Source: a virus. Taken from it: DNA of 64,000 bases. The notes below the pieces were generated by a model. It had not been told where the DNA came from. It saw nothing but the letters and a program-made list of their open reading frames with translations, and ran no database searches. The stretch lies in the IMG/VR virus record IMGVR_UViG_3300044640_002221, positions 72,924 to 136,923 of that record, one strand, 5' to 3'. Positions within the stretch are counted from its first letter, which is position 1. The number at the start of each line of letters is the position of its first letter. Positions 18,643 to 54,600 of this stretch are shown piece after piece. The position numbers and the translations under genes are program-made.

Positions 18643-18668
18643 TTTGTAGTTCTTCCTCTTGGTAGTTT

Positions 18669-29470: not shown

Positions 29471-29520
29471 AAAGTTTTTATTTTTATTCTTTCTCTATTC
29501 TTTTTTCTTATTATTTTAAG

Positions 29521-29594: not shown

Positions 29595-29598
29595 TTGA

Positions 29599-29669: not shown

Positions 29670-29673
29670 AAAG

Positions 29674-30781: not shown

Positions 30782-30926
30782 GCTACTATTGCTACTCTAT
30801 TAAGCAGCTTTAATGTTTTCTTCTGTTTTTACTACTATTCTCAAAGGCTAGTGTATCTACCAGGAAACCATACCTGATTTGTTATAGAAACTACAAAGTT
30901 TTCATGAACTGGTGTTATTTTTATGC

Positions 30927-35440: not shown

Positions 35441-35473
35441 TGCTAATTTAACGCCACTCTTTTTACCTTGCTC

Positions 35474-38333: not shown

Positions 38334-39446
38334 TCAACTAACCCACATTGGAGCCATTATCACCAGCGATCGCACTTCGGGTGCTTCTGGCATTAATGAC
38401 CTTTGTAATAATGCTAATCCTAGCCCCACTGGAATGATAACTACCGCTATCAGCCCGGTAGAGGCGAAGGCTTGAATAATCATTATAAAGATGATTACAG
38501 TCGGGTCTGGTTCTATCCTTTCAGTTGACATCCAGTACACCACAATAGCTGGTAGCACTCCTAATAAAAACACAGCTACTAAGGGATAAAACCCTAAACC
38601 TTGACCATCTAAGGCTGGTGATTGAGTAAGTTTGTTAGTAGTGAGGAGTAAATCAGCAAGTGGTGTTTTGCTTGCACTACCCCCACCTCTGATAATCAAT
38701 CCCAGATTCCATGCTTCTAAAGCCACACTCACGAGATTAGCTATTAATACTCTATATACTCCAGGAGCTATTAGAGCATTAGTAGCCGCAGAGAGTGATA
38801 AGCCCGGTGTTATCCAGGCTAAACCAAACACATACAATACCAAACTCACTCCAGGCGGTTGGTCTATCCCTCTTTCTGCTAGACTCTTGCCGGGATACTG
38901 CGGGTCTATAAGATTAGGTATTGCTAACCCTGCTAGTAGGGGAAGCATTGGCGTGTTTACTAACCAGAACATCTTGAGTAACCAAAACACTACCGCCGCT
39001 ATTCCTACACTCATTGCAGTGAGTGTCAAGAAGCCGAGGTAAGTGCCTCTATGCCATACATCTTTATTGAGGTATATGAGTGAGCCTACTATTAGCAAGG
39101 CTACTACTCCAGTTAAATAACCTGGTGGTTTTGGTATTGGAAGCCAGAGGAATGCGACCAGCGTTATCACTCTTGCTACTTTCATCCACCCTGCACCAGA
39201 TAACTCAACTGCTGACTCCTCCCCGCGTGCTAGTAATTGGTTAACGTCTACATCTTCATTAAGTAGATAAACCAATAAGTAAGCCAGCACCACTGCTATC
39301 ACTTTGGCAGGTGGACTGGCTTGTAAGTAATGTGAGATTGTGAGAGTTGCCGCCCCTGCTATATAAGGACTGGTTAAGGAATATTTTGCTAAGGCAGTCG
39401 TTGTCCATAAGAACAGGAGCAGTGCGATAGCTAAAGTGAGATTCAT
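38334..39446 (-). CDS. Multi-pass membrane protein (weakly TctA-like)
   Basis: About 10 hydrophobic segments; LLAGLAIPNL and ITPGLSLS motifs. Confidence 0.6.
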   Translation of the reverse strand: MNLTLAIALLLFLWTTTALAKYSLTSPYIAGAATLTISHYLQASPPAKVIAVVLAYLLVYLLNEDVDVNQLLARGEESAVELSGAGWMKVARVITLVAFLWLPIPKPPGYLTGVVALLIVGSLIYLNKDVWHRGTYLGFLTLTAMSVGIAAVVFWLLKMFWLVNTPMLPLLAGLAIPNLIDPQYPGKSLAERGIDQPPGVSLVLYVFGLAWITPGLSLSAATNALIAPGVYRVLIANLVSVALEAWNLGLIIRGGGSASKTPLADLLLTTNKLTQSPALDGQGLGFYPLVAVFLLGVLPAIVVYWMSTERIEPDPTVIIFIMIIQAFASTGLIAVVIIPVGLGLALLQRSLMPEAPEVRSLVIMAPMWVS

Positions 39447-39533
39447 ATAGTGGTGAAAGTGGTACTAATTCCTTACTCTATTCTTTTTTCTGGCAGCCTA
39501 ATATCCTTTCTACTTAGTTGATATAAGGGTCAA

Positions 39534-39962
39534 TCATTTCTTACACTCCACAGTTTCATAAGTTCCATTAGGCTTGCCGAACCTATCGGTAATCTCTTGA
39601 TAGCCTACAACTCTTGCACCTGACTGGCTTATGCGAACTGCCTCTCGGCAAGCAGTCCGTACACCTTTATGCAAGGTATTTTGCTCTAACTCCCGGTCTT
39701 TGTTCACCACTACATCAATCCATTCACTACCAATAGCTAACGCCGCCCTAACTTCTATTTCCCCTCTTTCAGTTGAAAGGATTATAGTGTCGTTAAAACG
39801 ACCTGTCCTAGTTACTATTGCTTCTTTATACAATCCGGTAGATTCATTTCTCCAAGGTGAGGCTGGTGCTGCTGATATAGGTAAAGAACGATAGGAGTCT
39901 AACCCTGCGACTGCTAATAGTACAAACACTAACACTTGTAGGAAGTTTTTCATTGCTTCCAA
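39534..39962 (-). CDS. Hypothetical protein with N-terminal signal/TM segment
   Basis: FLQVLVFVLLAVAGL. Confidence 0.7.
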   Translation of the reverse strand: MEAMKNFLQVLVFVLLAVAGLDSYRSLPISAAPASPWRNESTGLYKEAIVTRTGRFNDTIILSTERGEIEVRAALAIGSEWIDVVVNKDRELEQNTLHKGVRTACREAVRISQSGARVVGYQEITDRFGKPNGTYETVECKK

Positions 39963-40261
39963 CCTACAAGTGTTGGACGGTTATAACCATCTACAGATAG
40001 TCTTGCTGTACCATTACCTAATACCTTCACAGCTTGGCGTGTGTCTTCAACTCTCATTCTCTTGCCATCAAACAGCAGAACTACACAGGTAACACTACAA
40101 AAGCCCCGCACCTCAGCCTTTACACTATAAGTCCCTGGAGCTGGATAAACAGAATACTTTAACTCTGGATACTCTCCACTTGCAGGACTGACAGCGAGCC
40201 CAGCTAACCCTAAACACCCAAGGCTGCTGATGAGCAGCCATACAATCTTCACTCTTTCCAT
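39950..40261 (-). CDS. Hypothetical protein with N-terminal signal peptide
   Basis: IVWLLISSLGCLGLAGLAV-SPA. Confidence 0.65.
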   Translation of the reverse strand: MERVKIVWLLISSLGCLGLAGLAVSPASGEYPELKYSVYPAPGTYSVKAEVRGFCSVTCVVLLFDGKRMRVEDTRQAVKVLGNGTARLSVDGYNRPTLVGWKQ

Positions 40262-40343
40262 TGGTACTTTTACAGTAATGATTATTGAATCATAGTCTGA
40301 AAGTGTTTGATAGGGTTTGAGAGTTTATGAAAGAGTTTGTTGG

Positions 40344-40371
40344 AAATGTGTCCAGTAAAATGGACACATTT
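40344..40371. terminator. 11-bp perfect hairpin
   Basis: AAATGTGTCCA-gtaaaa-TGGACACATTT, intergenic just after the stop at 40388. Confidence 0.55.
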
Positions 40372-40387
40372 AGGAGTGAGGATTGCT

Positions 40388-40978
40388 TTAGACGTAGGTT
40401 AAGCTGGTGAGCTTTGTAGACTCTCTTAGATTAAGTTCATACTCTGCCAAGCTAGGACGTTCAGGACGTTTGATAGGTACATCAACTCTAATACCCTTGC
40501 TCACAGGTTGTTCAAGGATAGAGACTAGTAAAACTTCACCTTGAGGAAAGAATAGGATGCGACCACCCGCTTCAGGTTTAGCAGAACGAAGGTAATCACC
40601 CCCGTCCTGCTTCTTAAATAGCAAGTCATCATTGTCATGCTCAATGGTTAGTTCAGTTGGACTGGTGGATAACTCTACCTCACCATTAGGGAATAGAACA
40701 GTCCAGCAACCGCTAGCTGGTTTGTTCACAAAGGGAACTACTAGCTCCATAGTCACATTGTTGAAGCTTGACTCTAGCTTCTCGTCCCAAAACTCATGGG
40801 TTCTTTCGTATATTAATGAGTCAGTCGTGCGGAACCACTCTGCCCGCAATAGGATAGCCAATACTCCGCTTACATGGTGTTCAGGAAACTTTGAGCCTAC
40901 AGCTTTGATAACTATCTTGGCTCGAACTTCAGATACTCTCTGAACAGTTCCTCTGTGTAAGATTCTTTCTGCAGTCAT
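40388..40978 (-). CDS. Hypothetical protein
   Basis: 196-aa ORF. Confidence 0.7.
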   Translation of the reverse strand: MTAERILHRGTVQRVSEVRAKIVIKAVGSKFPEHHVSGVLAILLRAEWFRTTDSLIYERTHEFWDEKLESSFNNVTMELVVPFVNKPASGCWTVLFPNGEVELSTSPTELTIEHDNDDLLFKKQDGGDYLRSAKPEAGGRILFFPQGEVLLVSILEQPVSKGIRVDVPIKRPERPSLAEYELNLRESTKLTSLTYV

Positions 40979-41060
40979 GATACTATGCTCCGATACTATA
41001 AGCGATGTGACTATTAGAAAACAAGCTTGCGGCTTATTTACCTTGCTCTTTTCTTTTTTC

Positions 41061-41264
41061 TTACTTTAAAACTCTCTGTGGTTCATCACCCTCAGCTTCC
41101 TCACAGTTTCTATGAACCATTCCTACAGGCTTCAAGCTGTAAGGTGGATATAACCAATAAGGTCTATTACTGTATCTGAAGGTAATCTTGCCTCCGCAGA
41201 GCCAGCAGTAGTTCCCTGGTGGACTGTTATTGTAAGGTGGTTGATTTATGTTGTCGTAGTTCAT
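41061..41264 (-). CDS. Hypothetical protein (CxxC...HxxC)
   Basis: 67-aa ORF. Confidence 0.55.
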   Translation of the reverse strand: MNYDNINQPPYNNSPPGNYCWLCGGKITFRYSNRPYWLYPPYSLKPVGMVHRNCEEAEGDEPQRVLK

Positions 41265-41341
41265 AGCTTATATAGAAAAGAAAGAATAAAGAAGATAGAA
41301 AGATAAATAAAAGAAGAAAGGGCGGCTGCGCCCTCTATTCT

Positions 41342-41800
41342 CTAATTAGTAATGTAGTCTTTAATCCAGTAGATTAACTCCTGTAAGAAATCATCAGAGT
41401 CTCTGCTGAGGTCTCTTGGAGCTTCTGCTACCATTGTGGAGATTCTAACCATCTGCTCTGCAAGCACATTTATCGTATGACAGGCTAATGGGCTTATCTC
41501 CTGTAAGGCTTTACCTAAGTCACTCTCCGATTCTATAATTCACTGCAGAAGCTCGCAGGGAACACTTTCTCTAGAGTAGTGGGCTGCTGGATTCTGAGTA
41601 GCCCATAGTTGTCTGAGATGGTCTACAGGTATATAAGCTTCTACTCTGCTCATCTCTCTACCATCACAATCTTCTACGGTTACACCAGATAAATCATGCC
41701 TTAACCTACTGACGTTGATATAGTTCTGTTTAACAGCCAGCACTTCATCTTCCGGCAGGTCACTGTTAGCGTCTACCAGAATCCATTTGATATCTGTCAT
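41342..41800 (-). pseudogene. Paralogue of 41853..42449 with in-frame TGA (41540-41542)
   Basis: Frame continues past TGA: ELLQ*IIESESDLGKALQEISPLAC...ELIYWIKDYITN*; aligns to EIILWHQ...ELVYWLKEYI. Confidence 0.8.
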
Positions 41801-41852
41801 TACTCTTTCTCCCTTTTGTTTTAATAGGAAAGAGGGTTGCCCCTCTCTCAAT

Positions 41853-42449
41853 TTACTCTTGACCAGCAATATATTCCTTGAGCCAATAAACAAGCTCATC
41901 CATTACTACTGTGTCAGCAATCATCTGTTCTGCACGCTTCTCCTGATAAGTTTCCTTAACCATTCCCTCGGCTATAAATCTTATTAGCTTGGTACAGTCT
42001 AAAGGACACTCTTTTAAAGCAGAGTGGAGAGGTTCTTTTAAGACCTGCTCGCCATCTTTTTGGTGCCAGAGTATGATTTCATAAGCCTGACTCTCTTTAG
42101 AGTACCTAGCTGCTGGGTTCTGTTCATCCCACAGTTGCCTGAGTTCTTCCAGAGGTATGTAACCAGCCCCAACCACAAAAGTAGGGCTTTTATCTTCATT
42201 AATGATTGGTACATCTGAAACAAGCCTTAAGGAGGACAAGTACATCATCCCCTCTTTACTGATAGCCAGCACCACACCTTCCGGTAAGTTCTCAGCATCT
42301 ATGGGAATCCATTTAACCTGATTGCTTGTAGAATCTGTCATTGTTTGGGACTCCTCTTCGGTTTCTGTCATTCTTGTTGTTGCCTCATTAATAAAGCTAA
42401 CGTTGGAATCATGAACAAGCATACTATCACTGCCTGCAAGCTTCCCCAA
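41853..42449 (-). CDS. Hypothetical protein
   Basis: VKWIPIDAENLPEGVVLAI...GYIPLEELRQLWDEQNPAARYSKES; true start probably downstream of the track start. Confidence 0.75.
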   Translation of the reverse strand: MGKLAGSDSMLVHDSNVSFINEATTRMTETEEESQTMTDSTSNQVKWIPIDAENLPEGVVLAISKEGMMYLSSLRLVSDVPIINEDKSPTFVVGAGYIPLEELRQLWDEQNPAARYSKESQAYEIILWHQKDGEQVLKEPLHSALKECPLDCTKLIRFIAEGMVKETYQEKRAEQMIADTVVMDELVYWLKEYIAGQE

Positions 42450-42661
42450 TCAGAGAACAGCTCTTGGACACCAAACACTATCATGATTGGCAGTAAGCAG
42501 GCTGTGGCTACACAGAAGTGATATAACCAGAAGGTCTGGTCATCAAGAAACATCAGAAAGTATCTGAGATTGTAGTTGAGTAAGAGGACAGACATTGCTG
42601 TCAGCACTCCTATAGATACTTTTAGCAGGGCTGTTAATGGTTCAAATAACATCTGTTCCAT
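42368..42661 (-). CDS. Small membrane protein
   Basis: Three hydrophobic segments. Confidence 0.65.
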   Translation of the reverse strand: MEQMLFEPLTALLKVSIGVLTAMSVLLLNYNLRYFLMFLDDQTFWLYHFCVATACLLPIMIVFGVQELFSDWGSLQAVIVCLFMIPTLALLMRQQQE

Positions 42662-42897
42662 TAATCTTCCTTCTGTCCTTGTACCACTCCAGCAGCAACC
42701 AGTGGGGCTGTGCTGACTAAAGCTGTGGTTTCTGATTTATTTACAGCAGCACTTACAAAACCACCGACTGCTACTACTGCTAACGCCGCTGAGGCAATAC
42801 TAGCTAAATCATTCTTGGCTTCACGTTTAGACATTTTTTTCAGCTTTCTGTATTGTTGATTGAGGGACATCGCGGCTGCTTTGCCCCTCTCTATCAT
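42661..42897 (-). CDS. Small membrane-anchored protein
   Basis: ASIASAALAVVAVGGFVSAAV. Confidence 0.65.
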   Translation of the reverse strand: MIERGKAAAMSLNQQYRKLKKMSKREAKNDLASIASAALAVVAVGGFVSAAVNKSETTALVSTAPLVAAGVVQGQKED

Positions 42898-43782
42898 CTA
42901 TGGACGTTTGTAAACCCAGTTACCAGAAGACACCTTGCTAGGAGCTTCTATAGAGCCACCACTGCGAGAGTCAATGCTCACAGTGTCACTGGCTTTACCA
43001 ATGAGTTTGAAAGCGCCGGGAGTCCAGCCTTTTAGAATTATGCCAATAGACTCCCGTTCTTTATCGAAGTCAGATTCTTCATAAGGAAGACCCGTTGCTG
43101 GGTTGATTGAAGCAGCTGCAATCTTAATCTTCTCATCGCCTGAAAGAGGACGCATACGAACGTCGCAGAGAAATAGGAAGTTGCCCTCCTTACCATCCAC
43201 GTTGGTAAGGTAAGGTCTTATGTTTGTATACTCCTTGTCCTTGGAGTAATTCTCATTTCCAACTTCTTGGTAGAACTCAGCGTGAGTGTGAAGATAACCA
43301 ATTTCTTTCTGGGTCAAAAGACCCGCTTCAACAACATCGTCTCCAAGATCTAGAGACAGGGAGCGGAAGCCAGTTAACCAAGGAACTTTTTCACCTGGTT
43401 TTAAATTAGTCTTTGCCTTATTGTCTTTGGACAGTGAAATAAACTGAAAGCTTGTGCGGTCAACAACAGCAGAGAGTCTGAACTTGGTGCTGACTACACC
43501 AACACTTGATACACCATCTTCATCCTCAACTTGAGGACTGACGGTTACTGCCTGCTCTAGGACGATGTTCAAAAATCTATCTTTTATCATTTGTGTTGGA
43601 ATGATAAAGTGACTAGCACCTTGTTCAGCTTGCTGCCAGAAGAACTCCGGCATTAACTTGGCTAGGTGTTCGCGTGACCCACCTTCTTGAAGCATATCAA
43701 TGAACTCTTGAGGTGTTAACTCAGAAGATGAACGAGTAACTTGAGACTGAGATTCTGTTTGGTTATTGTTTGGACGTGGCAT
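42898..43782 (-). CDS. Hypothetical protein
   Basis: Likely start MPRPNNNQ at 43782 (AAAGGA SD). Confidence 0.75.
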   Translation of the reverse strand: MPRPNNNQTESQSQVTRSSSELTPQEFIDMLQEGGSREHLAKLMPEFFWQQAEQGASHFIIPTQMIKDRFLNIVLEQAVTVSPQVEDEDGVSSVGVVSTKFRLSAVVDRTSFQFISLSKDNKAKTNLKPGEKVPWLTGFRSLSLDLGDDVVEAGLLTQKEIGYLHTHAEFYQEVGNENYSKDKEYTNIRPYLTNVDGKEGNFLFLCDVRMRPLSGDEKIKIAAASINPATGLPYEESDFDKERESIGIILKGWTPGAFKLIGKASDTVSIDSRSGGSIEAPSKVSSGNWVYKRP

Positions 43783-44025
43783 GATAGTTTTCCTTTTAGT
43801 GGTTTGATAGTTTGCTGAGAGTGTTTGATTTGTGGTCTGTCTCTCATTCCCTTTTCTTTTTTCTTCATTTAAAAAGACCACAGTTGCTCCCAGAGCTGGG
43901 TAGGCTTTAGGGAAACTGCAGTCTTTTTGTGAGGATAAAGCTCGGCTTTCGGGGTGTGGAAGAAACCACAGTTATCTACTAGCACGGCCTTGTTCCATTC
44001 CCTTTTCTTTTTTCTTAAATTAAAA

Positions 44026-44052
44026 AGGCAGAGAGGTTAATACTCTCTGCCT
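44026..44052 (-). terminator. Intrinsic terminator
   Basis: AGGCAGAGAG/CTCTCTGCCT stem followed by TTTTT on the minus strand, right after the stop at 44058. Confidence 0.85.
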
Positions 44053-44057
44053 ATTAC

Positions 44058-44870
44058 TCAAAACCCGTAGGCTTCTGTTTCGCTCTCTACGACGCTGTAA
44101 ATGCGTCCTGAACCCCGCTTGTTATAAACAGTAACCATTTTCAGCTTTTGAAGAAGGTTGAGGTCGTAAGACACAGTGGAAGCAGCACAAGGAAAACCTT
44201 GCTCAGATAGAGCTTGTGCAATCTGGACTTGCTGTAGTCCTTCTTGTCCACGCTCTCTGATCAATCTTATTAATGCTTCCCGGCGTTCTATGGTTTTAAG
44301 AGTCGCGTTCTCTCTTGGTGAGAGAACTATATGTAAAGGTTGAAATATCTCTTCCTTTATTTCTTCTGGTAGTTCTTTAACCAGCTTTGGACGTGAGTAA
44401 ACCACCGGAGTAGGCATAGGCTCTTCAACCTCTTCAACCTCTACAGGTTCTTCAACTTTGAAGTTAGTAAACTCACAGCTTGTAAGCTTACCTTCTTTGG
44501 TAAGCTCCAGCTTTAAATCTCTAGTTTGGATAACTAGACTATCTTTGTCGTCTAATGCTTCCTGAATCAGTAAAGCTATTGATTCAGGAATTGAGATGAT
44601 TAAATTTGCCATTGATGTTTCCTTCACCACTGTGTTTGGTTTAATTTCGCTATCTGTGAACAGTTCCTCTAATAACAGAGCTTCTAGAAAGCTCCTCCTC
44701 TGCTTTGTAGTCCAGAATCCTTTTTCTTCTCTCCAAAATAGGAGTCTAGATATAAAGTGCTCTGCTGGTAGATTTAAAGCTTGCCCACGCTTTACCAGCT
44801 CTTGCTCGGATGTGAAACTTTCACATCTGGAGCTTGAAGAAGTATTTAGGTGTGAAGACAATTCACTCAT
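44058..44870 (-). CDS. Protein with C-terminal winged HTH (ArgR-like pattern)
   Basis: RREALIRLIRE...QVQIAQALSEQGFPCAASTVSYDLNLL. Confidence 0.7.
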   Translation of the reverse strand: MSELSSHLNTSSSSRCESFTSEQELVKRGQALNLPAEHFISRLLFWREEKGFWTTKQRRSFLEALLLEELFTDSEIKPNTVVKETSMANLIISIPESIALLIQEALDDKDSLVIQTRDLKLELTKEGKLTSCEFTNFKVEEPVEVEEVEEPMPTPVVYSRPKLVKELPEEIKEEIFQPLHIVLSPRENATLKTIERREALIRLIRERGQEGLQQVQIAQALSEQGFPCAASTVSYDLNLLQKLKMVTVYNKRGSGRIYSVVESETEAYGF

Positions 44871-44967
44871 TACAAACTCTTATAAGTTATCAAACTCTTT
44901 TCTTTTTTTCTTTTAAGGGGCTTAAAGCCCCAACGAACTGTTCGTTGCTCAAGTTGAGCACGGCGGC

Positions 44968-45234
44968 TCACCCTTTCACAACTTCCACACTGTCAGGGTC
45001 AACCCCCCAGCGCAGACTGTACTGTAGCCTGAGATTAGCTATCGTAGCATGAAGACCTTTCATGCCACTTACTTTACTCTGTACCACTGTCTTGACGTTA
45101 TGATACGCCTTGGCTGCTAAAGACACCTGGATGTAGTAGGTTTTGCTGGGGTTCAGCTTTATAGCCTTATGTAACCCCTCTTCTATATTGTACTCCCCAA
45201 CTATGGGACATTTACGGTACGGGTTTGTAGTCAT
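44968..45234 (-). CDS. Hypothetical basic protein
   Basis: 88-aa ORF. Confidence 0.65.
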   Translation of the reverse strand: MTTNPYRKCPIVGEYNIEEGLHKAIKLNPSKTYYIQVSLAAKAYHNVKTVVQSKVSGMKGLHATIANLRLQYSLRWGVDPDSVEVVKG

Positions 45235-45237
45235 AGC

Positions 45238-45483
45238 TTATGAAAAGAAGTTAGCTAATAAGTCAGCAAAAAACAAAGGATCACAGTGACAGTTAATAAT
45301 TCCTCCTGTAGGAAGTTTAACTAAGGTATTTTTGATGGCTGAATAATAACGTACTATTCCACTGGAGAACGTAAGAACAATTACGTCCCCTTTTACCTTT
45401 GCCAACTTCACTTCTCCTTCTGTTCTTAGAAAAACTTCCCCTTCATAGAAAGAAGCTTCTGCATAATCAAGCGTAAACACCAA
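45238..45483 (-). CDS. Hypothetical protein
   Basis: 81-aa ORF. Confidence 0.6.
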   Translation of the reverse strand: MVFTLDYAEASFYEGEVFLRTEGEVKLAKVKGDVIVLTFSSGIVRYYSAIKNTLVKLPTGGIINCHCDPLFFADLLANFFS

Positions 45484-45700
45484 CTAGAGAATCTTCTTCT
45501 TTTAACTCTCCGCCGTCAGCTCCACTCCACAGCTCACACCTAAAGTGGTTAAACCCATCATTATCCTCAAGGAACTCCTTCTTAAGTTCCTCCCACGCCT
45601 GTCTTGCACTCTCATTTGCAAATCCCAGATACTTTGGCTCGTCATCAGTCTTACATTCAATGATTAATATCATCCGTAGGCTCCTTAATAAACCAATCAC
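45467..45700 (-). CDS. Hypothetical acidic protein
   Basis: 77-aa ORF; likely start MILIIECK. Confidence 0.6.
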   Translation of the reverse strand: MIGLLRSLRMILIIECKTDDEPKYLGFANESARQAWEELKKEFLEDNDGFNHFRCELWSGADGGELKEEDSLVGVYA

Positions 45701-45751
45701 TTATCTTTTTTCTAAAGAAATAAGAGCCAGCACCACGCCAGCTCCACCTCC

Positions 45752-46089
45752 TCAAGTCACAATCTCTTCCACAGTGCCTTGGACAAATACAGGCTCACCC
45801 TTCTGGAAAACCAGACTGTCTGCGTTTAATATGTCTGACAGCCAAGAGGTGTATTCACTCTCTAAGGTCTGACTGTTTAGTATAGTTGCTAGAGGGTATC
45901 TGATATATGCTCTTCTACCCTCCCAATCTAGGGGACTTAACTCTCCCAGACCTTTGTACAACTTGCCCCAGAACCAAGCCCCGTTCTCTTTACCTTCAGC
46001 TACCAGCCGTTCGGCATCTGTCCACTCATTTGAATGAGGAACTCAGCTTGAAGGTTATGATTCACAAGCTTAATAGTTTTAGATTCCAT
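45752..46089 (-). pseudogene. ~112-aa gene split by an apparent 1-nt deletion
   Basis: MESKTIKLVNHNLQAEF then other frame PHSNEWTDAERLVAEGKENGAWFWGKLYKG...; span 338 nt. Confidence 0.55.
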
Positions 46090-46147
46090 GACTTACTCTC
46101 TAAGGAACAAATACCCTGCACTCTTCTTTTTTTCTTTTAAAGAGAAA

Positions 46148-46164
46148 AGGGGCATCAAGCCCCT
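46148..46164 (-). terminator. Intrinsic terminator
   Basis: AGGGGC/GCCCCT stem followed by TTTCTC on the minus strand, after the stop at 46169. Confidence 0.75.
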
Positions 46165-46168
46165 CATT

Positions 46169-46495
46169 CTAACCTTCTATAATTACCTTCTCTCTTGTTA
46201 GTTCTACATTCTCGTTAAAGCTATTAACTAGCTCAGTTAATGAGCTAGTTGGGTGTAAAGAGATAGTTCCATCTTTATGTCCTACAATACTACCAAGAGT
46301 TGGGTGGAAAGCTTCAAACAGTCCCGCATCATAGTCAATATACTCAATCGTCCAGTGAAATCCTTCTGGAGTAGGAAAACTCCACTGTATCCGCTCCCGT
46401 TCTAAAACCACACCGTTTGGGTGCTTTGGAGTCTTTACAAGCTCCCACGCTTCCGCCTTTCTGTTTGTAGTGGTGTCTATAACTTTAATCTCCAT
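46169..46495 (-). CDS. Hypothetical protein
   Basis: 108 aa, GGAGA SD. Confidence 0.7.
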   Translation of the reverse strand: MEIKVIDTTTNRKAEAWELVKTPKHPNGVVLERERIQWSFPTPEGFHWTIEYIDYDAGLFEAFHPTLGSIVGHKDGTISLHPTSSLTELVNSFNENVELTREKVIIEG

Positions 46496-46598
46496 GACTG
46501 TCTCCTAGAAATAATGAAAGAACATATACCCTTCACTCTTCTTTTTTTCTTTAACATAGTGCTTGCACACACTTCTGTTAATAAGCTGCTACTATAGA

Positions 46599-46628
46599 AA
46601 TAGGTGTCTAATATATTAGACACCTATT
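46599..46628. repeat. Perfect 30-bp palindrome between divergent genes
   Basis: AATAGGTGTCTAATA|TATTAGACACCTATT. Confidence 0.95.
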
Positions 46629-46652
46629 CAAGTTCACATCATTTAATTAATT

Positions 46653-47324
46653 ATGACAGACCAGAGCGCTTACGTCATCGAAGAGTTAGAATTTATAGAT
46701 GAGCAAATGCCGTCTGTATACCTACTATCTTATCACACTGCCAGTATGAATGAACTCTCTATAGCTAAAGAAGCTTATGACACCTCTCAGCAATACCGCT
46801 TTAAGAGTCTCACTCACTATAAGAACTCTGGCGAGTTTCTGATAAAGATAAGAGAAGCTCTGCGGGGTGCAACAAGAGAAAAGCCTATTGTCTCTGATAT
46901 AGGAACATTTAACTCCTTTGAGCACTATATGCAGACCTTCTTTGGTAAGGAGACTACAACAGGCTTAAAAAGAGCTCAAGCTAGAAACTACATGAGGCTG
47001 GCAGAAAACTGGGATGTCGTAGAAGACTTAAAGCTAAACGAAAGCGAAGCTTGTTACAGGTTAGTAGCAACCTTAAAGATTATCTCTTGGGGTCTCAAGA
47101 AGAGAGAGGCTGGCTATAACCTTAAAGAGTTAGACCACCACCTCTACTGGGATGAGAGAGACGAACTAGCCGCTCAACAGGAACGGACTGGTGAACTATC
47201 AAAGCCTCAACTAAAAGCTCTTGTTAAAGAACTAAATAAGAAGGTAGAAGACTTAACACAAGAGCTATTGGTCTACAAGCGACGGTTTAGTGTTGACATT
47301 CTAGAAGAGAGCTTCGCCCGGTAA
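46653..47324 (+). CDS. DUF3102-like protein
   Basis: SGEFLIKIRE...FEHYMQTFF...LKRAQARNYMRLAENW, plus a C-terminal coiled coil. Confidence 0.65.
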   Translation: MTDQSAYVIEELEFIDEQMPSVYLLSYHTASMNELSIAKEAYDTSQQYRFKSLTHYKNSGEFLIKIREALRGATREKPIVSDIGTFNSFEHYMQTFFGKETTTGLKRAQARNYMRLAENWDVVEDLKLNESEACYRLVATLKIISWGLKKREAGYNLKELDHHLYWDERDELAAQQERTGELSKPQLKALVKELNKKVEDLTQELLVYKRRFSVDILEESFAR

Positions 47325-47347
47325 ACTACTCTCTACTTTTTTCAATT

Positions 47348-47386
47348 AAAAGACTGGTAAACCTAATGAGGGCTCGCCAGTCTTTT
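47348..47386. terminator. Bidirectional terminator between convergent genes
   Basis: AAAAGACTGG...CCAGTCTTTT. Confidence 0.65.
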
Positions 47387-47658
47387 TAGTTTGTAGGGTT
47401 GCTTTTCTTAAACCCTAACTTCTGCATAGTCTGTTGAGAAGAGTGCAGCGTTCCGCTCTCCAACTCAACCACTATGTCATTCCTTTCATGAGAAACTACC
47501 ACACCATTGTCGGTGGGCAGCTCTCCTTCAATAGGGTCTCCAACAACCCACCTATCAGACCCTGTTGGGTCATCAGGAAAGTTGTTGGGGTCTACTGGCT
47601 TGGGTCGGGACACTCTAGCCACGCGCCTGCTCCTTAACGTAAGCCTCCACTTCCTCAA
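47386..47658 (-). CDS. Hypothetical protein
   Basis: 90-aa ORF. Confidence 0.55.
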   Translation of the reverse strand: MRKWRLTLRSRRVARVSRPKPVDPNNFPDDPTGSDRWVVGDPIEGELPTDNGVVVSHERNDIVVELESGTLHSSQQTMQKLGFKKSNPTN

Positions 47659-48037
47659 CAGAGGCGAACTTCTGAATCTCTGTCAAGTCTCCATCTGTAT
47701 AACCCTCATCAGAGCTATACAGAACAATGTCGCCATTGTCTTCTTGCCAGATGACGTGGGAGACAGGCAAGGCTTCAAAGAGTGGACCACAAGCATAGGC
47801 ATCCCAGCCTATCATTTCTTCGAGTTCCCTAATGGGAACTATGTACTGGTCTGTAGGCGACCAGCATCCCTCAGTGGTCATTACAACCTCTGGTTTAGTA
47901 GAGTAGATATCTCGCACCTCATTTAGAGGAACGAGAGTATGTTTCCATAGACAGTTAGGCATCTGTCCCGTCTCCCATATCTTCAAGTTGGGCAAGGCTG
48001 TATAAACAGCCATTTCTTGCTGCTTCTTGTAGCTCAA
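47615..48037 (-). CDS. Hypothetical protein
   Basis: 140-aa ORF. Confidence 0.65.
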   Translation of the reverse strand: MSYKKQQEMAVYTALPNLKIWETGQMPNCLWKHTLVPLNEVRDIYSTKPEVVMTTEGCWSPTDQYIVPIRELEEMIGWDAYACGPLFEALPVSHVIWQEDNGDIVLYSSDEGYTDGDLTEIQKFASVEEVEAYVKEQARG

Positions 48038-48130
48038 CTATCATCTCTAATGTTATAAATTCCATAAATCTAGGATTAAAGATACCCTTCACTTTACTTT
48101 TTTCTAAAAGGGAGATTGCTCCCCAAATAA

Positions 48131-48400
48131 CTACCAAGGCAAAGCACCTTTACGCTCCTTGGTTTTATAAGGTCTTTTGTCACATAGAGGCAAGTGACTA
48201 GCTATGAAGCTCAAGGCTTCTTTGTGCCCTTGTGGAGTACAAGGAAAGTATGCGTTGTATTCATCCTGTGGGTCTTCTGGCAATGCGTACCCCACAACGT
48301 AGCAGTCTACCAACTGCTGTTTCTCTCTTCTGGCATTTTCCTTATGCCACTCAGAAGGACGTTCTAAAGCTTTTGACATAAAACTCCTATAAATTACCAT
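48131..48400 (-). CDS. Hypothetical protein
   Basis: Likely start MSKALERP (AGGAG SD). Confidence 0.65.
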   Translation of the reverse strand: MVIYRSFMSKALERPSEWHKENARREKQQLVDCYVVGYALPEDPQDEYNAYFPCTPQGHKEALSFIASHLPLCDKRPYKTKERKGALPW

Positions 48401-48455
48401 TCACTTTACTTTTTTCTTTAAAAGAAAGTGAGAGCGTGATCGCTCCCAACAGTCT

Positions 48456-48926
48456 TTATAGAGCACTACGCTCGGCGTGCTTCTGTTCCACTGATACAGC
48501 AGCCCCAGCCCACTGCTCAGAGACTACTTCAATCTTCTTGATATGAAGTAGCCCCGCATAATTGAAGACAACAGATTTGTCTTCTAATACTACACGATTG
48601 TGTTGGGGAACCAAGAAGGTCTTTACACCTGCCTTTAGCCAGTCAATCTGGAGGGGTAAAGGAGCCACAGCAACAACTATAGAATATGCAGGAATAGCCC
48701 ACTTCACATCTGCAGGAGTTACACCTGCCTCTTGTTCCTCCTTTGTAGGAAGAGGAGATTCTGTAAATGTAATCTGGTCACCATTTGCTCTAATGTCCTT
48801 GATAGAACCTTTGAATTGTTCTGTAATGCCACCCAAGTCAGCAACCATTTCAGGAGTAGCTGTGTGGCGGGAGAAGAAGTATATGTTAGCCATGAGAAAG
48901 AGTTCCTTTAATAGTAATAATTCCAT
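48456..48926 (-). CDS. Small Rossmann-like protein with N-terminal SRH motif (Csx16-like, tentative)
   Basis: MANIYFFSRH...IVVAVAPLPLQIDWLKAGVKTFLVP; likely start MANIYF. Confidence 0.5.
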   Translation of the reverse strand: MELLLLKELFLMANIYFFSRHTATPEMVADLGGITEQFKGSIKDIRANGDQITFTESPLPTKEEQEAGVTPADVKWAIPAYSIVVAVAPLPLQIDWLKAGVKTFLVPQHNRVVLEDKSVVFNYAGLLHIKKIEVVSEQWAGAAVSVEQKHAERSAL

Positions 48927-48963
48927 TCCCTCTTCTTTTTTTCTAAGAAAAGAGTGGAAGCAA

Positions 48964-49227
48964 TTAAGCTTCCTTCTGTTGAACTAACCAGTCAGCTCCT
49001 TCAGGAGTTATTTTATACTGTCCATCGGTCTTCTGAATAAGACCTTCCTGTTTCAACTTGGTCATTACTGACCTTGAGGAGACAACCTGCAGTTCTTCAC
49101 TGCTGGCTGCTCCTGTCTCCAGGTACTCTAAAGCACGGGCCTTAGAGTTGGAGTTTTTAAGAGCCCCGCGCTGGCGAGACTCATCTAGAGTTTGGTCGTC
49201 GTAATGACGACCGTTTCTGTCTATCAA
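48964..49227 (-). CDS. Small winged-helix protein
   Basis: ARALEYL...SSEEL...VMTKLKQEGLIQKTDGQYKITPEG. Confidence 0.7.
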   Translation of the reverse strand: MIDRNGRHYDDQTLDESRQRGALKNSNSKARALEYLETGAASSEELQVVSSRSVMTKLKQEGLIQKTDGQYKITPEGADWLVQQKEA

Positions 49228-49733
49228 GCAGACACCTCCTCTAGAGCTGGAAACTCTATGGTTTCTATACCGTCGAATATCTCTTTCAGCTCTCCTGGTG
49301 AGAGTCTACCAAGGTCATAGTGATGCAACAAGAGGCGACTGTACCATTCACCCCACTTAGTGTTTGAGCCATACTTCATTGCCTCAAAAGCTTTTCCTTT
49401 GTCGAAGAAGCTTGTAGATTGCAAGACCAAGAAAGTATGCTCTACCAAGTCATGGTCAGGTTTATCCATTCTCCACTCTCTACCTTCTTGTAGTAAAGCA
49501 AGAACCTTGTCTACTGCGTCTTTGTAGACGACTAACTCAAGCGTTCTTTTCTTGAAAGGACGTGCGCCATTAACTGTTACTAGTTTAAATACGGACATGG
49601 TAACTCTCCTTAAAGAAATAAAAATTCCATTCCCTCTTCTTTTTTCTAAAACAGATTTGCTGTCCATTCTAGATTGAAAGCTTGAGAGAGTGGTGCTCAT
49701 CACCTCCTTCATAGAAGTACAAACGGCTCCCAC
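49224..49733 (-). CDS. Hypothetical protein
   Basis: Likely start MSVFKLVT (AAGGAG SD). Confidence 0.65.
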   Translation of the reverse strand: MGAVCTSMKEVMSTTLSSFQSRMDSKSVLEKRRGNGIFISLRRVTMSVFKLVTVNGARPFKKRTLELVVYKDAVDKVLALLQEGREWRMDKPDHDLVEHTFLVLQSTSFFDKGKAFEAMKYGSNTKWGEWYSRLLLHHYDLGRLSPGELKEIFDGIETIEFPALEEVSA

Positions 49734-50004
49734 TAAACACTCTCTCTAACGACTCAAGCAAAGCCGAGAACGTCCGTGTTCCACGCGCATTAGTTAGTAT
49801 AGCTGTTAATTCAGCACTGCTCCTACTCACTTGTTGATTCCTTAGACTTCATCACCTCCCTCTGTTGAGGTTCAAACGGCTCCATCCTTTGGACAAGCTT
49901 CGGACATTACAGCACAGTTACCTGTGTATCTAACTAATGTTCCTTGCTCTTTTCTTTTTTTCTTAAAGAGAATAGCATGACACTGTTATCATGCTACCCA
50001 AAAA

Positions 50005-50196
50005 TCATCCTTCAACTCTGTTATAAACATCAATAGCATCCTGTAGCTTCCCACCTTGGAAGCGGAATGCACCCTTGTCATAGACCAAGTATGCTACCTG
50101 GCTCTCAGGAAGCCACAGCTCTGCAAGGAGAGATTTTTCCCCTTCAGTAACTAGGACAACCCTCGTCCTGTCTTCTAACTGTTCTACTGTCAGCAT
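50005..50196 (-). CDS. Hypothetical protein
   Basis: 63-aa ORF. Confidence 0.65.
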   Translation of the reverse strand: MLTVEQLEDRTRVVLVTEGEKSLLAELWLPESQVAYLVYDKGAFRFQGGKLQDAIDVYNRVEG

Positions 50197-50368
50197 AAAT
50201 TAATAAAATAATAAAAAATCCGCCCTCTCTTCTTTTTTTTTCTTAAACAGCGATCGCCTACTGTACCAACCTGTCCTGTTGTCATAAAGAAACAAACCAA
50301 CTGGCGGCGGCTGCTTTTTTATTAAAAGAAGTATAGCAGCTAACCCGGATGGATTAACTGCTATAGGA

Positions 50369-51139
50369 TTAGACGTTAGCTGCAAGTACAGATTGGTCTA
50401 CCTTTGGCGGAACTTCTGGAGGCGTACTTCCTGCTCTAACGCGAGTTTTTGGAGCCTCTGAAGGTGAAACTGCTTTAGGAGCAGGTGGAGCTTCTGGAAT
50501 ATCTCTTGTGGTTACACTAATAGGAGCCCCAGTTTCAACCTTCTTAGGTTGGGGCTTGCCGTTACGGAAGTAATCATTTAATTCCACTTTTCTACCCCTA
50601 ATACCATCCCCATGCCACTCCAAGTTTCTATAAGCCCAACCACTAAAGCTGAGCTGACCCTCCTTATTAATTTTTGGTAATAGCTGCAATCCAGCATCAC
50701 CATCTTGGGGCTCAAACCAAAGATTTGGGCAGTCTTTATAGTTTGGTTTAGAACCAGACTTAAGAATCTCGCCGGCTTCTCCAGTCCATTCTAGAAGTAC
50801 ATTTAGAGCAGCAACTACCTCTGGTTCTAAATCTTCTTCATGCAGAACTACATAACCGCCGATTTCCCATAATGAATTATCGCCAGCAGCTTTAGCCGCA
50901 GCGATATCTTTTGGTAAAGGTACAAGCTGCCAACCGTCTTCTGAAGAGCTAGTGCGACCTTGAATCTTTAACTGCAGGCTGAACCTGCCTGGAGTGTCTT
51001 GATAAACACCCCAAACGCGGGGTTTAACCAACTCTAACTCTTCGCTCCACATTGTGATGCGCTGACCAGCTTGTAGCTGCTCACAGAATAGAGCGGGTAG
51101 ATTTAGGTCTTCAGCTAACTTTAATAAATCTTGAGACAT
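50369..51139 (-). CDS. Hypothetical protein with Pro-rich tail
   Basis: 256-aa ORF, AAGGA SD. Confidence 0.75.
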   Translation of the reverse strand: MSQDLLKLAEDLNLPALFCEQLQAGQRITMWSEELELVKPRVWGVYQDTPGRFSLQLKIQGRTSSSEDGWQLVPLPKDIAAAKAAGDNSLWEIGGYVVLHEEDLEPEVVAALNVLLEWTGEAGEILKSGSKPNYKDCPNLWFEPQDGDAGLQLLPKINKEGQLSFSGWAYRNLEWHGDGIRGRKVELNDYFRNGKPQPKKVETGAPISVTTRDIPEAPPAPKAVSPSEAPKTRVRAGSTPPEVPPKVDQSVLAANV

Positions 51140-51689
51140 GATAAATATCCTTTAAAGTTGAATGATTCAGTCCCTAATCTTTTTTTTCTTAAAAAAATAG
51201 ACCCCACCTGCTTACAACAAGTGGGGTCTTGAGATTAGGAATCCATGCTCTATTCTTTTTTTCTAAGAAGAAAGTGGGGAACTATAATTCCCCAAAAATC
51301 TACCAAGAGATATTTAAAAAAATATCTCCACACATACCACTAACACAACTATCTGTGACAAAGCCCGCCTCAAACGCGGGGTACTTACTATTTACCAACT
51401 CAACTACTTCATCTTCTGAAGCAACAATGATTTGGAAATGATTTCTCGAAACTTCTTTAATAGACATAACAAACCCCTAGAGATGAACAACATTCACTCA
51501 TCTTTTTTTATAAGAAAAAGAAGCAAACCATTATCAACCAGAGTGTTAAGGCACCCCAGTCAGTTTGCTCCTTGGAAGATTTATGTCATCCATTCCCTTT
51601 TCTTTTTTTTCTTAGAGGGTATCAGATATTGGGACTTTCTGTCAATAGGGATGAGAAGTTTTAGAGGGGCTTCTCACCCCTATTGAAGG

Positions 51690-54600
51690 TTAGCAAACAG
51701 CTTGTTCTTTAAGCCAGTTGATAACATGAAGGTTGGTTCTATAAGAGTTAAACATCAACCTTCTATAGGTACTAGCTCGGTAGTTTCTTTGTTCTTTAGT
51801 CTCTGTGACTAAATCAACAGTATCGCAGCCAGTGTAGAAGTACAGGTCTTCTAGTTTTCTAACGCGGCTAGAGCCAACGTAGAAGGCATTGTTTTGGAAC
51901 ATAGGTCTCTTTGCACCATACTCCGTTCCGTTCAACACTACATCTACTGTTTGACCGTCATTAGGACGGACTCTCTTACGGGTGTAAGCGTGGGCAACTA
52001 CTTTATCCTCTGTCATACCTTGACAGCCGTGAAAGGTTATCGCCCATGCTAAGACAATAGGAATCTGGTTGAATCTTCCAACTGGGATTTGATTCTCATC
52101 TAATGGAGCATGGAGGTCTACTCTACCAATCTCAATGATGTTGCCATTACGAAGCTTGACATCAACTGAGTCATCATTAAGAGCTACAATAACTCCACGA
52201 CTACCTTTAGCTGCTAATGGTAGTTTATTAGAGTCGCTAGGGTCTTTAATCTCCTGCTTAACTCTAATTGGAGCCCCAACTACTAACTCCAAGTTTTCTT
52301 CTACAGGCTTAAAGTTCTCTATGAAAGATGCCCTAGTGTAGCTTCTGTCATTAACAGAGATATTAGCTGAGTAGACTTTACTCCTGTTACCTTTAGCTTT
52401 GAGTTTAGTTAGTTCTTGACGGTTCCATTCAATTAGTTCGTCATTTAGTGCAAACACATGAAGAGCATCTTCTGGCATTTCATCCAGGGAAGCTTTCAAC
52501 CGACCTTTAATCAAAGGACAGTTTTCTAGCTCTCTGTGTTTACCGTGTCCTTCACCAAGAGCTAGTAGGTTCAGCTCTTGGGCAAACTCAGAGCCTTCAG
52601 CCTGTCTCATCTGCTGCTTGAGGTTGATGAGTTTCATGTCTAGCTTGTCCATTAAGGAGGCTTTTATTACTTCCTCACCCTTGTGGTTGAAGACAGCTCT
52701 ATTCATAATCATCTCACCACCAACAGGCTCTAGTTGTTTGAAATCACCGACACAGAGCCATTGGATAGGAGTCTTGCGAGCCTTGTTTGCAGCAGCTTCA
52801 TCGCGTTGGTTAATTTCTAATCCTTCAGAGATTACATAACCAAGGCAGGTGTCTAGCATAGATACTTCATCTATCAGAAAGATGACACCTTTATACTTTC
52901 TGCCTTTCTGTACTTCAGAAAAGCGTTTCTTGGTTTTATCAGAGGTTACACCACCAACCATCTTCTGAGCTGCTGACCACTCTCTAGCTCCGTTATCAAA
53001 GCCTTTACCAACACCTGTAGCTCGGTTGATAGTACCTTGAGAGTCTTGCAGGTTCATGGAAGCTAAACCAGTTGTTGCTACAGGAACAATCCAGTAGCCC
53101 AACAGTTTAAGTATCTTAACTGCAACTGAAGAAAGGTGAGATTTACCCGTCCCGGCATTACCTGTTAGGACATAGTTACCTCCTAACAGGATTAAGCGGA
53201 GTGCTTGCTGTTGTTCGGGGTTTAGTCCTTTTACAAGGGCTGTAACCTCATTAGCAGTCCAAGTTTCCAGTTTTTCTATGTAAGGAGTTAACCAAGCTAA
53301 TGGATCTAACTTAACAACACTTCTGGCTCTTCCAGTAACTTTAGGAGCAGCGGGAGTTAGTAACCAGTAGCCTTTATAGCTGCAAGCAACCCACTCGGCT
53401 GAGTAGTTCTTACTCTCAACATAACTCTTGAGCAACTCATCAACGCCGCTGCATCCTCCGACAACAAACTTACTGCTTGCTGCGATAGCTTTATTTACTA
53501 AAGGAATGTAACGCTCGTTGAATACTTTTGCGGCATCAGCTTCTGTAATGCCACTGCTTTTGAAGACACCAGAGCCAGATACCATTACTACATCATTAGC
53601 AGTGTAGACACCTATGTTGGCTCTAGCACCCCAAGCTATACGATAGTTTTCTGTACTGCTTGCTACTCCAGGTTTAGCTGGGAAGCCGATGAATTGAGTG
53701 GCTACAGCAGCCATTGCATCATCTTTGATTTTGTTTCTTTCTGCACCAGGTACAGAGGGTAAACCATCAAGAGGGTGTTTAGCAACGAACTGTTCGTCAA
53801 CGGTAGTCGCACTCTCTGAGGACTTGTATTCCACAATTACAGCGTGAGGAATAACTTGTGCAAGAATATTCTGAACTTCTGTCCAAGTTGCTGTTTTAGA
53901 AGCTTCAGTTGGTCCCCCTGCTAAACCCGAACCTAGCCTGTGAGGAACATAAACAGTAAGATTCTGCTCCTCAGCAAATCTTCTTACTTCCTGCAAGCCT
54001 TTTGCTAAAGCATCAAAGTCAGTTTGTCTAGACCTTGTACTATAGTAATGCTGTCCCGCAACGTTGGCAACGTACAGTTTGTCTGCCACTTTGACAAACT
54101 GAACATCTCCCAACTTCCATTCTTTAGCTTTATACTCTTTGTCTACTAAAGGCCATTTCTGACCTATGGCTAAAGCTAGACCAGCGCCACTAACATTACA
54201 GCAGTTTACTTGTTGCACTATCACACCACAAGTAACATCTAAAATGTTGGTTAAGTTAGTTTGCGGCTTGGCTAAAGGTTCACTAGCAGGTGCAACGGAG
54301 TTTGCTTCAGGAGTTTCTACTGCTATGCCACCGCCATTACTATTAGGTCTTGGTCTTCTATTTATCACAGGGATGCCACCTTGTTCATCTTTCTGCTCAG
54401 TAAAGAGAGCTATAGATAAAGGTGCTTGCTTTTCTTCTTCTTCTACAACTGGAGGTACTTCAGGTAAAACTATTGATCTTCTACTTAAAGGTGTAGCAGG
54501 TGGCTTAGCCCGCTCTGGTTTCTTAAGGCTGTTATCCCAAGCAACTACAGTAGCCTCTTGAGCATCTACTTCATTTTGCTCTGCTTCTGTTAGTTCAGGA

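Follow-up and report, generated by a model that had tools for sequence, protein, structure and literature searches.

A strand-biased 22-nucleotide motif beside a giant polymerase-carrying gene: a candidate promoter series in an apparent freshwater cyanophage

The right-hand 64 kb of a 136,923-bp IMG/VR contig (record IMGVR_UViG_3300044640_002221, positions 72,924 to 136,923; estimated completeness 71%, GC content 40%) was analysed as a single stretch of 64,000 nucleotides (nt), referred to here as the window, while the whole contig is called G000. The right end of the window is occupied by a giant minus-strand open reading frame (ORF), which is followed on the same strand by a dense cluster of small genes. 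Copies of a purine-rich 22-nt motif recur between these genes, and this motif, a candidate promoter, together with the enzyme that would read it, is the subject of this report. Minus-strand genes make up 170 of the 193 long ORFs of G000, and their products include a ribonucleotide reductase, primase, helicases, a clamp loader, a split DNA polymerase, a UvsX-like recombinase, an rIIA-like protein and a sigma factor. Comparisons were made with three IMG/VR relatives, G001, G002 and G003.

The motif and its placement

The consensus can be written as (t/a)AAGAAAAAA followed by GAAnAGnGnAnGG, the right half being GAA(n)AG(n)G(n)A(n)GG. Positions are numbered from an anchor, +1, which is the G right after the A-run and the point on which all contexts were aligned. 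G at +1, +6, +8 and +12 and A at +5 are invariant, while no column beyond +13 is conserved in the aligned contexts. In the window, the core pattern AGAAAAAA has 33 minus-strand and two plus-strand occurrences, so that the more than 20 minus-strand copies of the initial annotation are borne out, together with their coordinates. A weight matrix trained on intergenic seeds and applied to the whole 136.9-kb contig with a cut-off of at least 16 bits found 41 minus-strand and 3 plus-strand sites, against a mean of 0.35 in 20 dinucleotide shuffles, and an independent pattern search returned 26 reverse and 0 forward matches (reversed control, 0/2). The copies are mostly intergenic, though non-coding DNA makes up only about 8% of the contig.

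Two subclasses can be distinguished. Subclass I has a T-rich upstream tract and T at +11 and belongs to the small-gene cluster beside the polymerase gene, while subclass II (gcAAGAAAAAAGAAnAgAG; gcAAG..., both +7 and +10 being A) is found throughout the genome ahead of genes for replication, the rIIA-like protein and other non-structural functions, among them the operon with the phage sigma gene. The two subclasses may mark early and middle gene classes. The motif had been described as densest at 41-52 kb; this holds insofar as 16 strong copies lie within 39474-51615, but further sites are found in the window at 35478, 29500, 21996, 17656, 11484, 8294 and 7971, as well as in the 73 kb of the contig left of the window. 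The copies in the window are as follows.

51590-51611, minus strand: motif, 27.1 bits; first downstream of the giant ORF stop, with the next ORF of at least 45 amino acids (aa) 135 nt on
51243-51264, minus strand: motif, 25.6 bits; after hairpin 51294-51275; ORF-less mini-unit
51167-51188, minus strand: motif, 19.3 bits; right after terminator 51229-51199; ATG 51139 lies 40 nt from the anchor
50220-50241, minus strand: motif, weaker, 15.7 bits; ahead of ATG 50196
49942-49963, minus strand: motif, 27.0 bits; after a hairpin; more than 120 nt to the next ORF
49627-49648, minus strand: motif, 25.3 bits; then AAGGAG and ATG 49598, 41 nt from the anchor
48923-48944, minus strand: motif, 25.1 bits; after hairpin 48973-48956; the G001 orthologue shares the motif
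48397-48418, minus strand: motif, 27.0 bits; after hairpin 48448-48429; AGGAG, then ATG 30 nt from the anchor
48085-48106, minus strand: motif, 22.4 bits; after a hairpin
46529-46550, minus strand: motif, 22.1 bits; AGGAG, then ATG 46495
46114-46135, minus strand: motif, 20.8 bits; after terminator 46165-46147; ATG 46089
45693-45714, minus strand: motif, 20.4 bits; after terminator 45745-45723
44890-44911, minus strand: motif, 22.5 bits; after a hairpin; ATG 44870
43995-44016, minus strand: motif, 30.5 bits; after terminator 44052-44026; first of a tandem pair, conserved in G001
43844-43865, minus strand: motif, 29.3 bits; second of the tandem pair; before gene 42898-43881
41041-41062, minus strand: motif, 30.0 bits; before gene 40388-40978; also in the G001 orthologue
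39471-39492, minus strand: motif, 26.6 bits; before gene 38334-39446
35466-35487, minus strand: motif, 23.9 bits; subclass II region
29488-29509, minus strand: motif, 29.1 bits; just after tRNA cluster 29521-29745; also in the G001 orthologue
21984-22005, minus strand: motif, 29.9 bits; ATG 30 nt on
17644-17665, minus strand: motif, 29.6 bits; before the rIIA-like gene 15305-17623; also in the G001 orthologue
11472-11493, minus strand: motif, 29.9 bits
8282-8303, minus strand: motif, 25.5 bits; ATG 31 nt on
7959-7980, minus strand: motif, 24.1 bits

The order of stop codon, hairpin with U-tract, motif and next gene that had been proposed from individual examples is confirmed for the cluster. 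Between 39 and 52 kb, 36 terminator-like sites are found where 10.4 are expected, and the best of them directly abut a motif copy, as in the two examples originally given (terminator 46165-46147, motif 46135-46114 and ATG 46089; terminator 44052-44026 and motif 44016-43995). When 32 dense-class sites were pooled from G000 and G001, the 50 nt upstream of the motif folded at -10 kcal/mol or below in 21, compared with 20% of random positions. These hairpins differ in sequence and size, and about one third of the copies have none. The proposal that each small gene forms its own unit under a phage promoter thus stands insofar as every small gene at 41-52 kb has a terminator-like hairpin upstream and a motif copy of its own; as a description of the motif it is too narrow, since the motif reaches well beyond the cluster.

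On the other side of the motif, distances from the anchor to the next credible start codon cluster at 25-47 nt (35 of 57 sites from G000 and G001), and the overall range runs from 18 to more than 300 nt; the fixed short distance to start codons that was to be checked for is therefore not found. A separate ribosome-binding site (AGGAG, AAGGA) lies between motif and ATG, and hence the motif is not itself the ribosome-binding site. Where a terminator abuts the motif, the 12-34 nt between motif end and start codon are mostly ribosome-binding site, so that, if the terminators work, any restart of transcription would have to come from the motif itself because no other room is left before the start codon. 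In both genomes there are also motif copies that are followed by a terminator within 15-130 nt with no ORF between. At the copy at 51243-51264, a strong terminator hairpin comes 27 nt after the anchor G, about 14-15 nt past the motif end. A promoter accounts for such ORF-less units; a translation signal does not.

Host-type promoter elements do not accompany the motif, in agreement with the earlier remark that TTGACA and TATAAT are lacking. Sigma-70-like promoters between 39 and 52 kb number 21 against 19.6 expected, a chance level, and hexamers of the -10 TAnnnT and -35 type at 16-18 bp spacing were not found at motif copies. Two arrangements that would rescue a host promoter were considered and rejected: a -35-like TAGAAA with a -10 element at +14 to +19 calls for columns that are unconserved and would put the start within ribosome-binding sites, and the geometry of an UP-element places the start past the ATG. 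The tRNA genes were likewise rejected as non-coding targets of the motif. The cluster at 29521-29745 (minus strand; His, Thr and Arg-UCU), which accounts for everything that an Rfam search returned, has a motif copy directly downstream and none upstream.

Two further observations concern individual copies. The ATG at 46089 opens a 29-codon frame whose peptide resembles the N-terminus of the product of the adjacent 108-aa gene (46169-46495), and the region 45700-46140 may be a paralogue of the 46495 gene that has suffered a frameshift, or an assembly error. Motif-like copies also lie deep in coding sequence, at 15554 and, in the giant ORF, at 63173, 62672 and 62381; those in the giant ORF score 20-24 bits and fall in its Lys/Glu-rich N-terminal part (62360-63190, minus strand). 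In the Lys/Glu-rich N-terminal part of the giant ORF of G001, motif-like copies in the same range of scores, at 62853 and 63033, form a 180-nt direct repeat. The copies inside the giant ORF could be a coincidence of coding or internal promoters.

The giant ORF and its polymerase core

The gene from which the dense motif cluster extends, and the part of it that was modelled, are placed as follows.

51690-63998, minus strand: giant ORF, more than 4,100 aa, open at the contig end; polyvalent protein
56259-58571, minus strand: modelled polymerase core, 771 aa; DFDGD encoded at 56838-56852

The protein joins an AlkB-type 2-oxoglutarate-Fe(II) oxygenase (aa 711-897), a two-barrel RNA polymerase (RNAP) core (about aa 1810-2580), a DUF4326 domain (2985-3103), a phosphatase (3250-3404) and a Dda/PIF1-type helicase (3590-4051). 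The initial annotation's adjacent giant RNAP is thus correct as to the presence of a polymerase core, which the invariant residues and the model described below support, and incomplete in that the core is one part of a polyvalent protein. Curated families miss the core, as is usual for divergent members: Pfam and PHROGs gave no match to residues 900-2980, Pfam found no polymerase family in eight homologues of the region, and searches of PDB with the giant ORF (phmmer and profile) matched the helicase alone and no polymerase.

The first barrel carries a K-x-R-x3-K pattern (HRNPKLRGIIK) and the second NSRAP...GDFDGD, in which R-x-P and the metal-binding DxDGD loop can be recognised. The motifs HRNPKLRG and RAP...GDFDGD are invariant in 14 close homologues. 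The corresponding motifs of the two-barrel RNAP of Escherichia coli are GRHGNKG and NRAP...NADFDGD. An exhaustive HMMER search yielded 77 representative homologues with 25-52% identity, in proteins of 216-4,532 aa; most are very large, at 1,100-4,500 aa. Across some 80 homologues K180, R182, K186, R659, P661 and G702-D703-x-D705-G706-D707 are essentially invariant, and these invariant K/R residues together with R-x-P and GDxDGD correspond to the beta-like and beta'-like double-psi beta-barrel (DPBB) pattern. Each genome has one DFDGD-type site. A T7-type polymerase (PF00940) was not found in G000, though the PF00940 controls gave no match either.

AlphaFold2 modelled the 771 residues with a mean predicted local distance difference test score (pLDDT) of 86.5 and a predicted template-modelling score (pTM) of 0.84 when 44 sequences were supplied, while 14 close sequences gave a pLDDT of 46. 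The 50 top Foldseek matches are all largest subunits of multisubunit RNAPs (bacterial beta', phage AR9, plant Pol IV), with the non-virion RNAP (nvRNAP) of AR9 first. In VIA-align, Pol II, Pol IV, Pol I and archaeal RNAP score Z 9.0-9.3, and alignments that extend across both barrels (model residues 43-771) were obtained with QDE-1 (Z 8.9, 339 residues), P23-45 gp96 (Z 8.2, 265 residues) and P74 gp62 (Z 8.2, 212 residues). Model residues 475-590 align to DPBB domains and RNAP largest subunits. With features from the ESM Atlas, 24 of 30 matches fall in clusters of PF05183, the RNA-dependent RNA polymerase (RdRP) family of the QDE-1/YonO type. Both barrel signatures and, at moderate scores, the overall fold of a two-barrel RNAP are thus present, and together they make it highly probable that the giant ORF embeds an RNA polymerase of the double-psi beta-barrel type.

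The giant gene has no motif upstream, and in G001 it lies within a motif-free block beside the structural module. This position fits late expression and packaging, and by analogy with virion-delivered polymerases the protein is probably a virion component that enters the cell together with the DNA. Three such giants, each of about 4,000 aa, are encoded in the lineage, with loci in G000 contig C1 at 7353-19574 (plus strand) and in G001 at 41425-53187 (plus strand) and 183614-196333 (minus strand). One of these giant proteins has an N-terminal nuclease and a peptidase-like region and one has no family match; the three recall the ejected cargo proteins of crAss-like and N4-like phages.

Relatives, motif divergence and host

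G001 (IMG/VR contig 3300046777_002658; 196,877 bp, 94% complete) is syntenic with G000, 89 ORFs matching mostly at 50-75% identity. Its motif sites (at least 14 bits) number 40 in sense and 1 in antisense orientation and are densest in the 11 kb just after the giant gene, while no site is found at its terminase, tail-sheath and tail-fibre genes, which are encoded on the other strand (Fisher p = 2e-5). Sixteen motif-bearing genes of G000 have orthologues in G001, and the motif precedes 10 of these orthologues where 3.1 would be expected (p = 1.8e-5). In the orthologous pairs, identity is 0.80 in the 22-nt motif, a value inflated by the selection of sites with the weight matrix, against 0.31-0.38 in all flanks, including the stretch up to the ATG; such random-level identity implies that no second element, for instance a -10 box, is conserved. 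A tandem motif pair round a short, terminator-ended and otherwise unconserved unit precedes the same gene in both phages.

G002 and G003 were found in IMG/VR with a profile of intermediate depth, and their polymerase cores are 28-29% identical to that of G000. G002 (155,913 bp) has a giant gene of 4,182 aa, and unbiased k-mer counting of its intergenic DNA returned the motif AACAGAGAAGAGTA(A/C)A(a)GA, with 24-26 sense and 4-6 antisense copies. The 10-kb bin starting where the giant gene ends contains 11 copies, of which at least 8 lie downstream of the gene, and the layout of hairpin with T-tract, motif, ribosome-binding site and ATG is that of G000. When the two motifs are aligned on GAAGAG they agree at +1 to +3, +5, +6, +10 and +12 and differ at -4 (C in G002), -2 (G) and +8 (A). 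The polymerase gene of G003 encodes 2,319 aa and carries GDCDGD, and the genome has a weaker relative of the motif, AAAAAAGnAAAGCG (14 against 1). The densest set of motifs begins right after the polymerase gene in three genomes. In G003, runs of an AAAACC repeat stand directly before start codons at 37038, 141042, 165204 and 186102, an A/C-rich leader with no counterpart in G000-G002.

GenBank phages include no near-identical and no protein-level relative of G000; IMG/VR searches with the sigma factor and the helicase gave no close relative, and a search there with the single polymerase region of the giant ORF gave no match. A profile of that region (A1) has G001 as its one IMG/VR match and found nothing in JGI metagenome contigs or GTDB genomes. 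A scan for the exact motif returned single scattered matches in IMG/VR (53 contigs), with no further multi-copy carrier, and isolated chance matches that point to no host among the at least 120 matches listed for GTDB genomes; in neither set was a multi-copy carrier without the giant gene seen.

The phage DNA was detected in lake-water metagenomes, in 24 DNA sequencing runs, and the HIP1 octamer GCGATCGC occurs 26 times in G000 where about 1 is expected, a 26-fold excess. The counts of 34 in G001, 5 in G002 and 0 in G003 suggest that G000 and G001 infect cyanobacteria and that the other two may have different hosts. With these habitats, the HIP1 enrichment and a sigma factor whose nearest solved relatives are cyanobacterial SigA, G000 is apparently an uncultured freshwater cyanophage. 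A second repeated word, the palindrome ACGAACnGTTCGT, is present 9 times in the 137 kb of G000 (in the window at 4858, 11263, 21235, 44933 and 53785, with four more elsewhere) and 11 times in G001, where chance would give about 0.01. It is frequently the stem of a hairpin at gene ends and may represent a family of terminators, an operator, or a target of a mobile element or endonuclease.

The reader of the motif

The oriented enrichment of the motif, its restriction to one class of genes and its conservation with lineage-specific changes across three to four genomes are the marks of promoters of phage RNAPs, and the 22-nt motif is very probably a phage-specific promoter. On balance we favour the embedded two-barrel polymerase as the enzyme that would read it, because the motif lacks the elements that sigma-70 holoenzyme needs, because the densest copies follow the polymerase gene in three genomes, and because the motif sequence shifts where the polymerase has diverged, as in G002.

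The alternative to be weighed first is a promoter read by host RNAP that a phage factor redirects, either the phage sigma or an activator or appropriator that would bind the purine-rich box instead of a -35 element, like MotA/AsiA at T4 middle promoters. The sigma gene is placed as follows.

1913-2929, minus strand: phage sigma-70-family factor with regions 1.2, 2, 3 and 4

Full-length sigma factors (regions 1.2-4) are encoded in all four related genomes, and that of G000 would be non-canonical in specificity, with C replacing W433 in region 2.3 and H-Y replacing R584-E585 in region 4.2; an A/T-rich stretch follows the motif, and a winged-helix protein is encoded within the dense cluster (44058-44870). 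Yet the motif has no TAnnnT-like element at constant spacing, and a -10 element placed after it would set the start in or beyond the ribosome-binding site of many genes. The sigma residues that read the -35 element also differ, being T-H-Y-R in G000 and S-P-E-R in G001, while the motif is common to both, and the sigma gene sits inside a motif-served block, so that it could not bootstrap its own expression. Reading by host RNAP is therefore unlikely. As a candidate for alternative reader the sigma factor is more likely a late-gene factor: its divergent -35 residues, set against a shared motif, and its own motif-served gene lead us to assign it to the structural genes. The sigma homologue of G003 (G003 contig C1, about 7700-9500) has an insertion of about 280 residues in region 2.3, with C first and T after, which looks like an intein. 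In G001, A/T-rich boxes that contain TATAAATA or TATATATTTA stand upstream of structural genes (terminase, tail sheath), including a T4-late-like TATAAATA at about 30840-30940 upstream of the tail-sheath gene; these boxes resemble late promoters of the T4 type and are candidate targets of the phage sigma or of another late factor.

A second alternative places the function in the RNA, the motif being a 5'-leader element, whether a translational enhancer or a site for a regulator or nuclease, with transcription reading through leaky hairpins. It would suit a motif that is strictly sense, purine-rich and unstructured, that mostly lies 25-47 nt ahead of start codons and that in some copies has no hairpin upstream. 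The A-rich translational enhancer put forward in the initial annotation belongs here and is disfavoured: the distance to the ATG varies, a separate Shine-Dalgarno sequence is present, and copies stand ahead of ORF-less, terminator-ended units in both genomes. Neither the short fixed spacing nor the strongly translated genes that mark Shine-Dalgarno or enhancer elements go with the motif, which is absent from the highly expressed structural genes. Its fixed G positions across 22 nt are unlike degenerate A/U-rich enhancers, and directly after strong terminators there is no space for another promoter. An RNA-leader element is accordingly improbable. An operator for a DNA-binding regulator of the phage (a repressor or timing switch), or some other DNA signal that is not an initiation site, would agree with a long, conserved, asymmetric DNA word tied to one gene class but is highly improbable, as the motif is neither palindromic nor repeated like typical operators, no separate promoter adjoins it and the gap from terminator to start codon is too short for operator plus promoter.

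The phage polymerase as reader has a precedent in P23-45, where the virion RNAP (vRNAP) and the nvRNAP are each paired with a motif of their own, found in relatives only together with the enzyme (bioRxiv 10.1101/2022.12.01.518664). The virion enzyme gp96 uses an AT-rich motif and the non-virion enzyme gp64 a GC-rich one. As in P23-45, a private motif lies upstream of genes that would be pre-early or early and the polymerase forms part of a giant multifunctional protein, and the model aligns over both barrels to gp96 and to the gp64 homologue P74 gp62. Unlike P23-45, sequence similarity is not detectable, the carrier is a polyvalent AlkB/phosphatase/helicase protein and not a tape measure, and the motif is purine-rich, 22 nt long, divided into two subclasses and found at most non-structural genes, with start sites that here are predicted. 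In crAss-like phages, phi14:2 gp66 is likewise a giant single-chain two-barrel enzyme with R-x-P...DFDxD (RIPNQ...DFDID) that transcribes early genes. A hidden Markov model of the present family has no profile-level similarity to gp66, 6VR4 is not among the fold matches listed for the polymerase model, and gp66, too, is unmatched by curated families.

Three further systems resemble this one in part. Promoters of the T7 group span 23 bp, from -17 to +6, and the T7, T3, SP6 and K11 variants differ at few positions. The long asymmetric consensus before short leaders, often after a terminator, and the occurrence of variants in related phages are shared with them, while the T7 enzyme is a single-subunit right-hand polymerase and the motif sequences share nothing. 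The N4 virion RNA polymerase, a giant protein of 3,500 aa, is injected and serves early genes; it is T7-like and reads a conserved DNA hairpin, whereas the hairpins here are variable and terminator-like, and no conserved small hairpin of the N4 type was found as a recognition element at motif copies. T4 middle promoters combine a MotA box at -30 with a sigma-70 -10 element. They have in common with the present motif a phage-specific box for one temporal gene class, which in T4 takes the place of the -35 element, but they need a canonical TAnnnT -10 element at a constant spacing, and none accompanies the motif. As a kind of system, a phage polymerase paired with its own promoter is known; the sequence, the enzyme family and the polyvalent-protein setting are new.

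Several points weigh against a promoter read by this polymerase. Since a sigma-70-family factor occurs in 4/4 related genomes, co-occurrence cannot separate the polymerase, the sigma and any other shared protein as reader. The best Foldseek E-value is 3.8e-3, all being above 1e-3, and the fold matches are moderate, at Z 8-9.8 where unrelated models often reach 7-8. The spacing of 25-47 nt is fairly narrow, as a 5'-leader element would also make it, and the early transcripts that depend on phi14:2 gp66, the best-studied single-chain virion enzyme, showed no common upstream motif. Packaging in the virion is argued from analogy and gene order alone, the comparison is based on three to four genomes, with the motif identity inflated as noted, and the sequencing runs listed as holding the phage include no RNA run.

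The data presented above lead us to propose a model whereby the polymerase core, within the 4,100-residue polyvalent protein encoded just upstream of the cluster, would be delivered into the cell in the manner of N4, crAss-like phages and P23-45. The single-chain two-barrel enzyme would recognise the motif as double-stranded DNA and start at or a few bases past its 3' end, around the GG at +12/+13, giving leaders of about 10-35 nt that hold the ribosome-binding site, and each unit would terminate at the hairpin and U-tract ahead of the next motif. Subclass I would serve the small-gene cluster and subclass II the replication and other non-structural genes, including the sigma operon, after which the sigma would bring host RNA polymerase to the structural genes, which lack the motif. 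That the whole non-structural programme is run by an injected two-barrel polymerase and a 22-nt promoter that shifts along with it in relatives seems to us an evenly balanced proposition.

Two-barrel RNAPs of phages are widespread and mostly unannotated, and promoters are known for very few of them, the crAss-like prototype being one for which none could be found. If the model holds, the motif would provide the first clear series of promoter consensus sequences for giant virion-type two-barrel polymerases, and a polymerase family would be recognised in some 80 representative clusters, which carry no annotation in any database. The roughly 40 copies, two subclasses and three-position variants make the specificity of enzyme for promoter testable, and the pair would be a candidate orthogonal expression system for cyanobacteria, where such tools are wanted. 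A 'hypothetical' giant cyanophage protein is reassigned as a polymerase-carrying polyvalent protein, and a three-step programme is suggested for these phages, in which a phage polymerase is followed by a phage sigma and then by the late genes.

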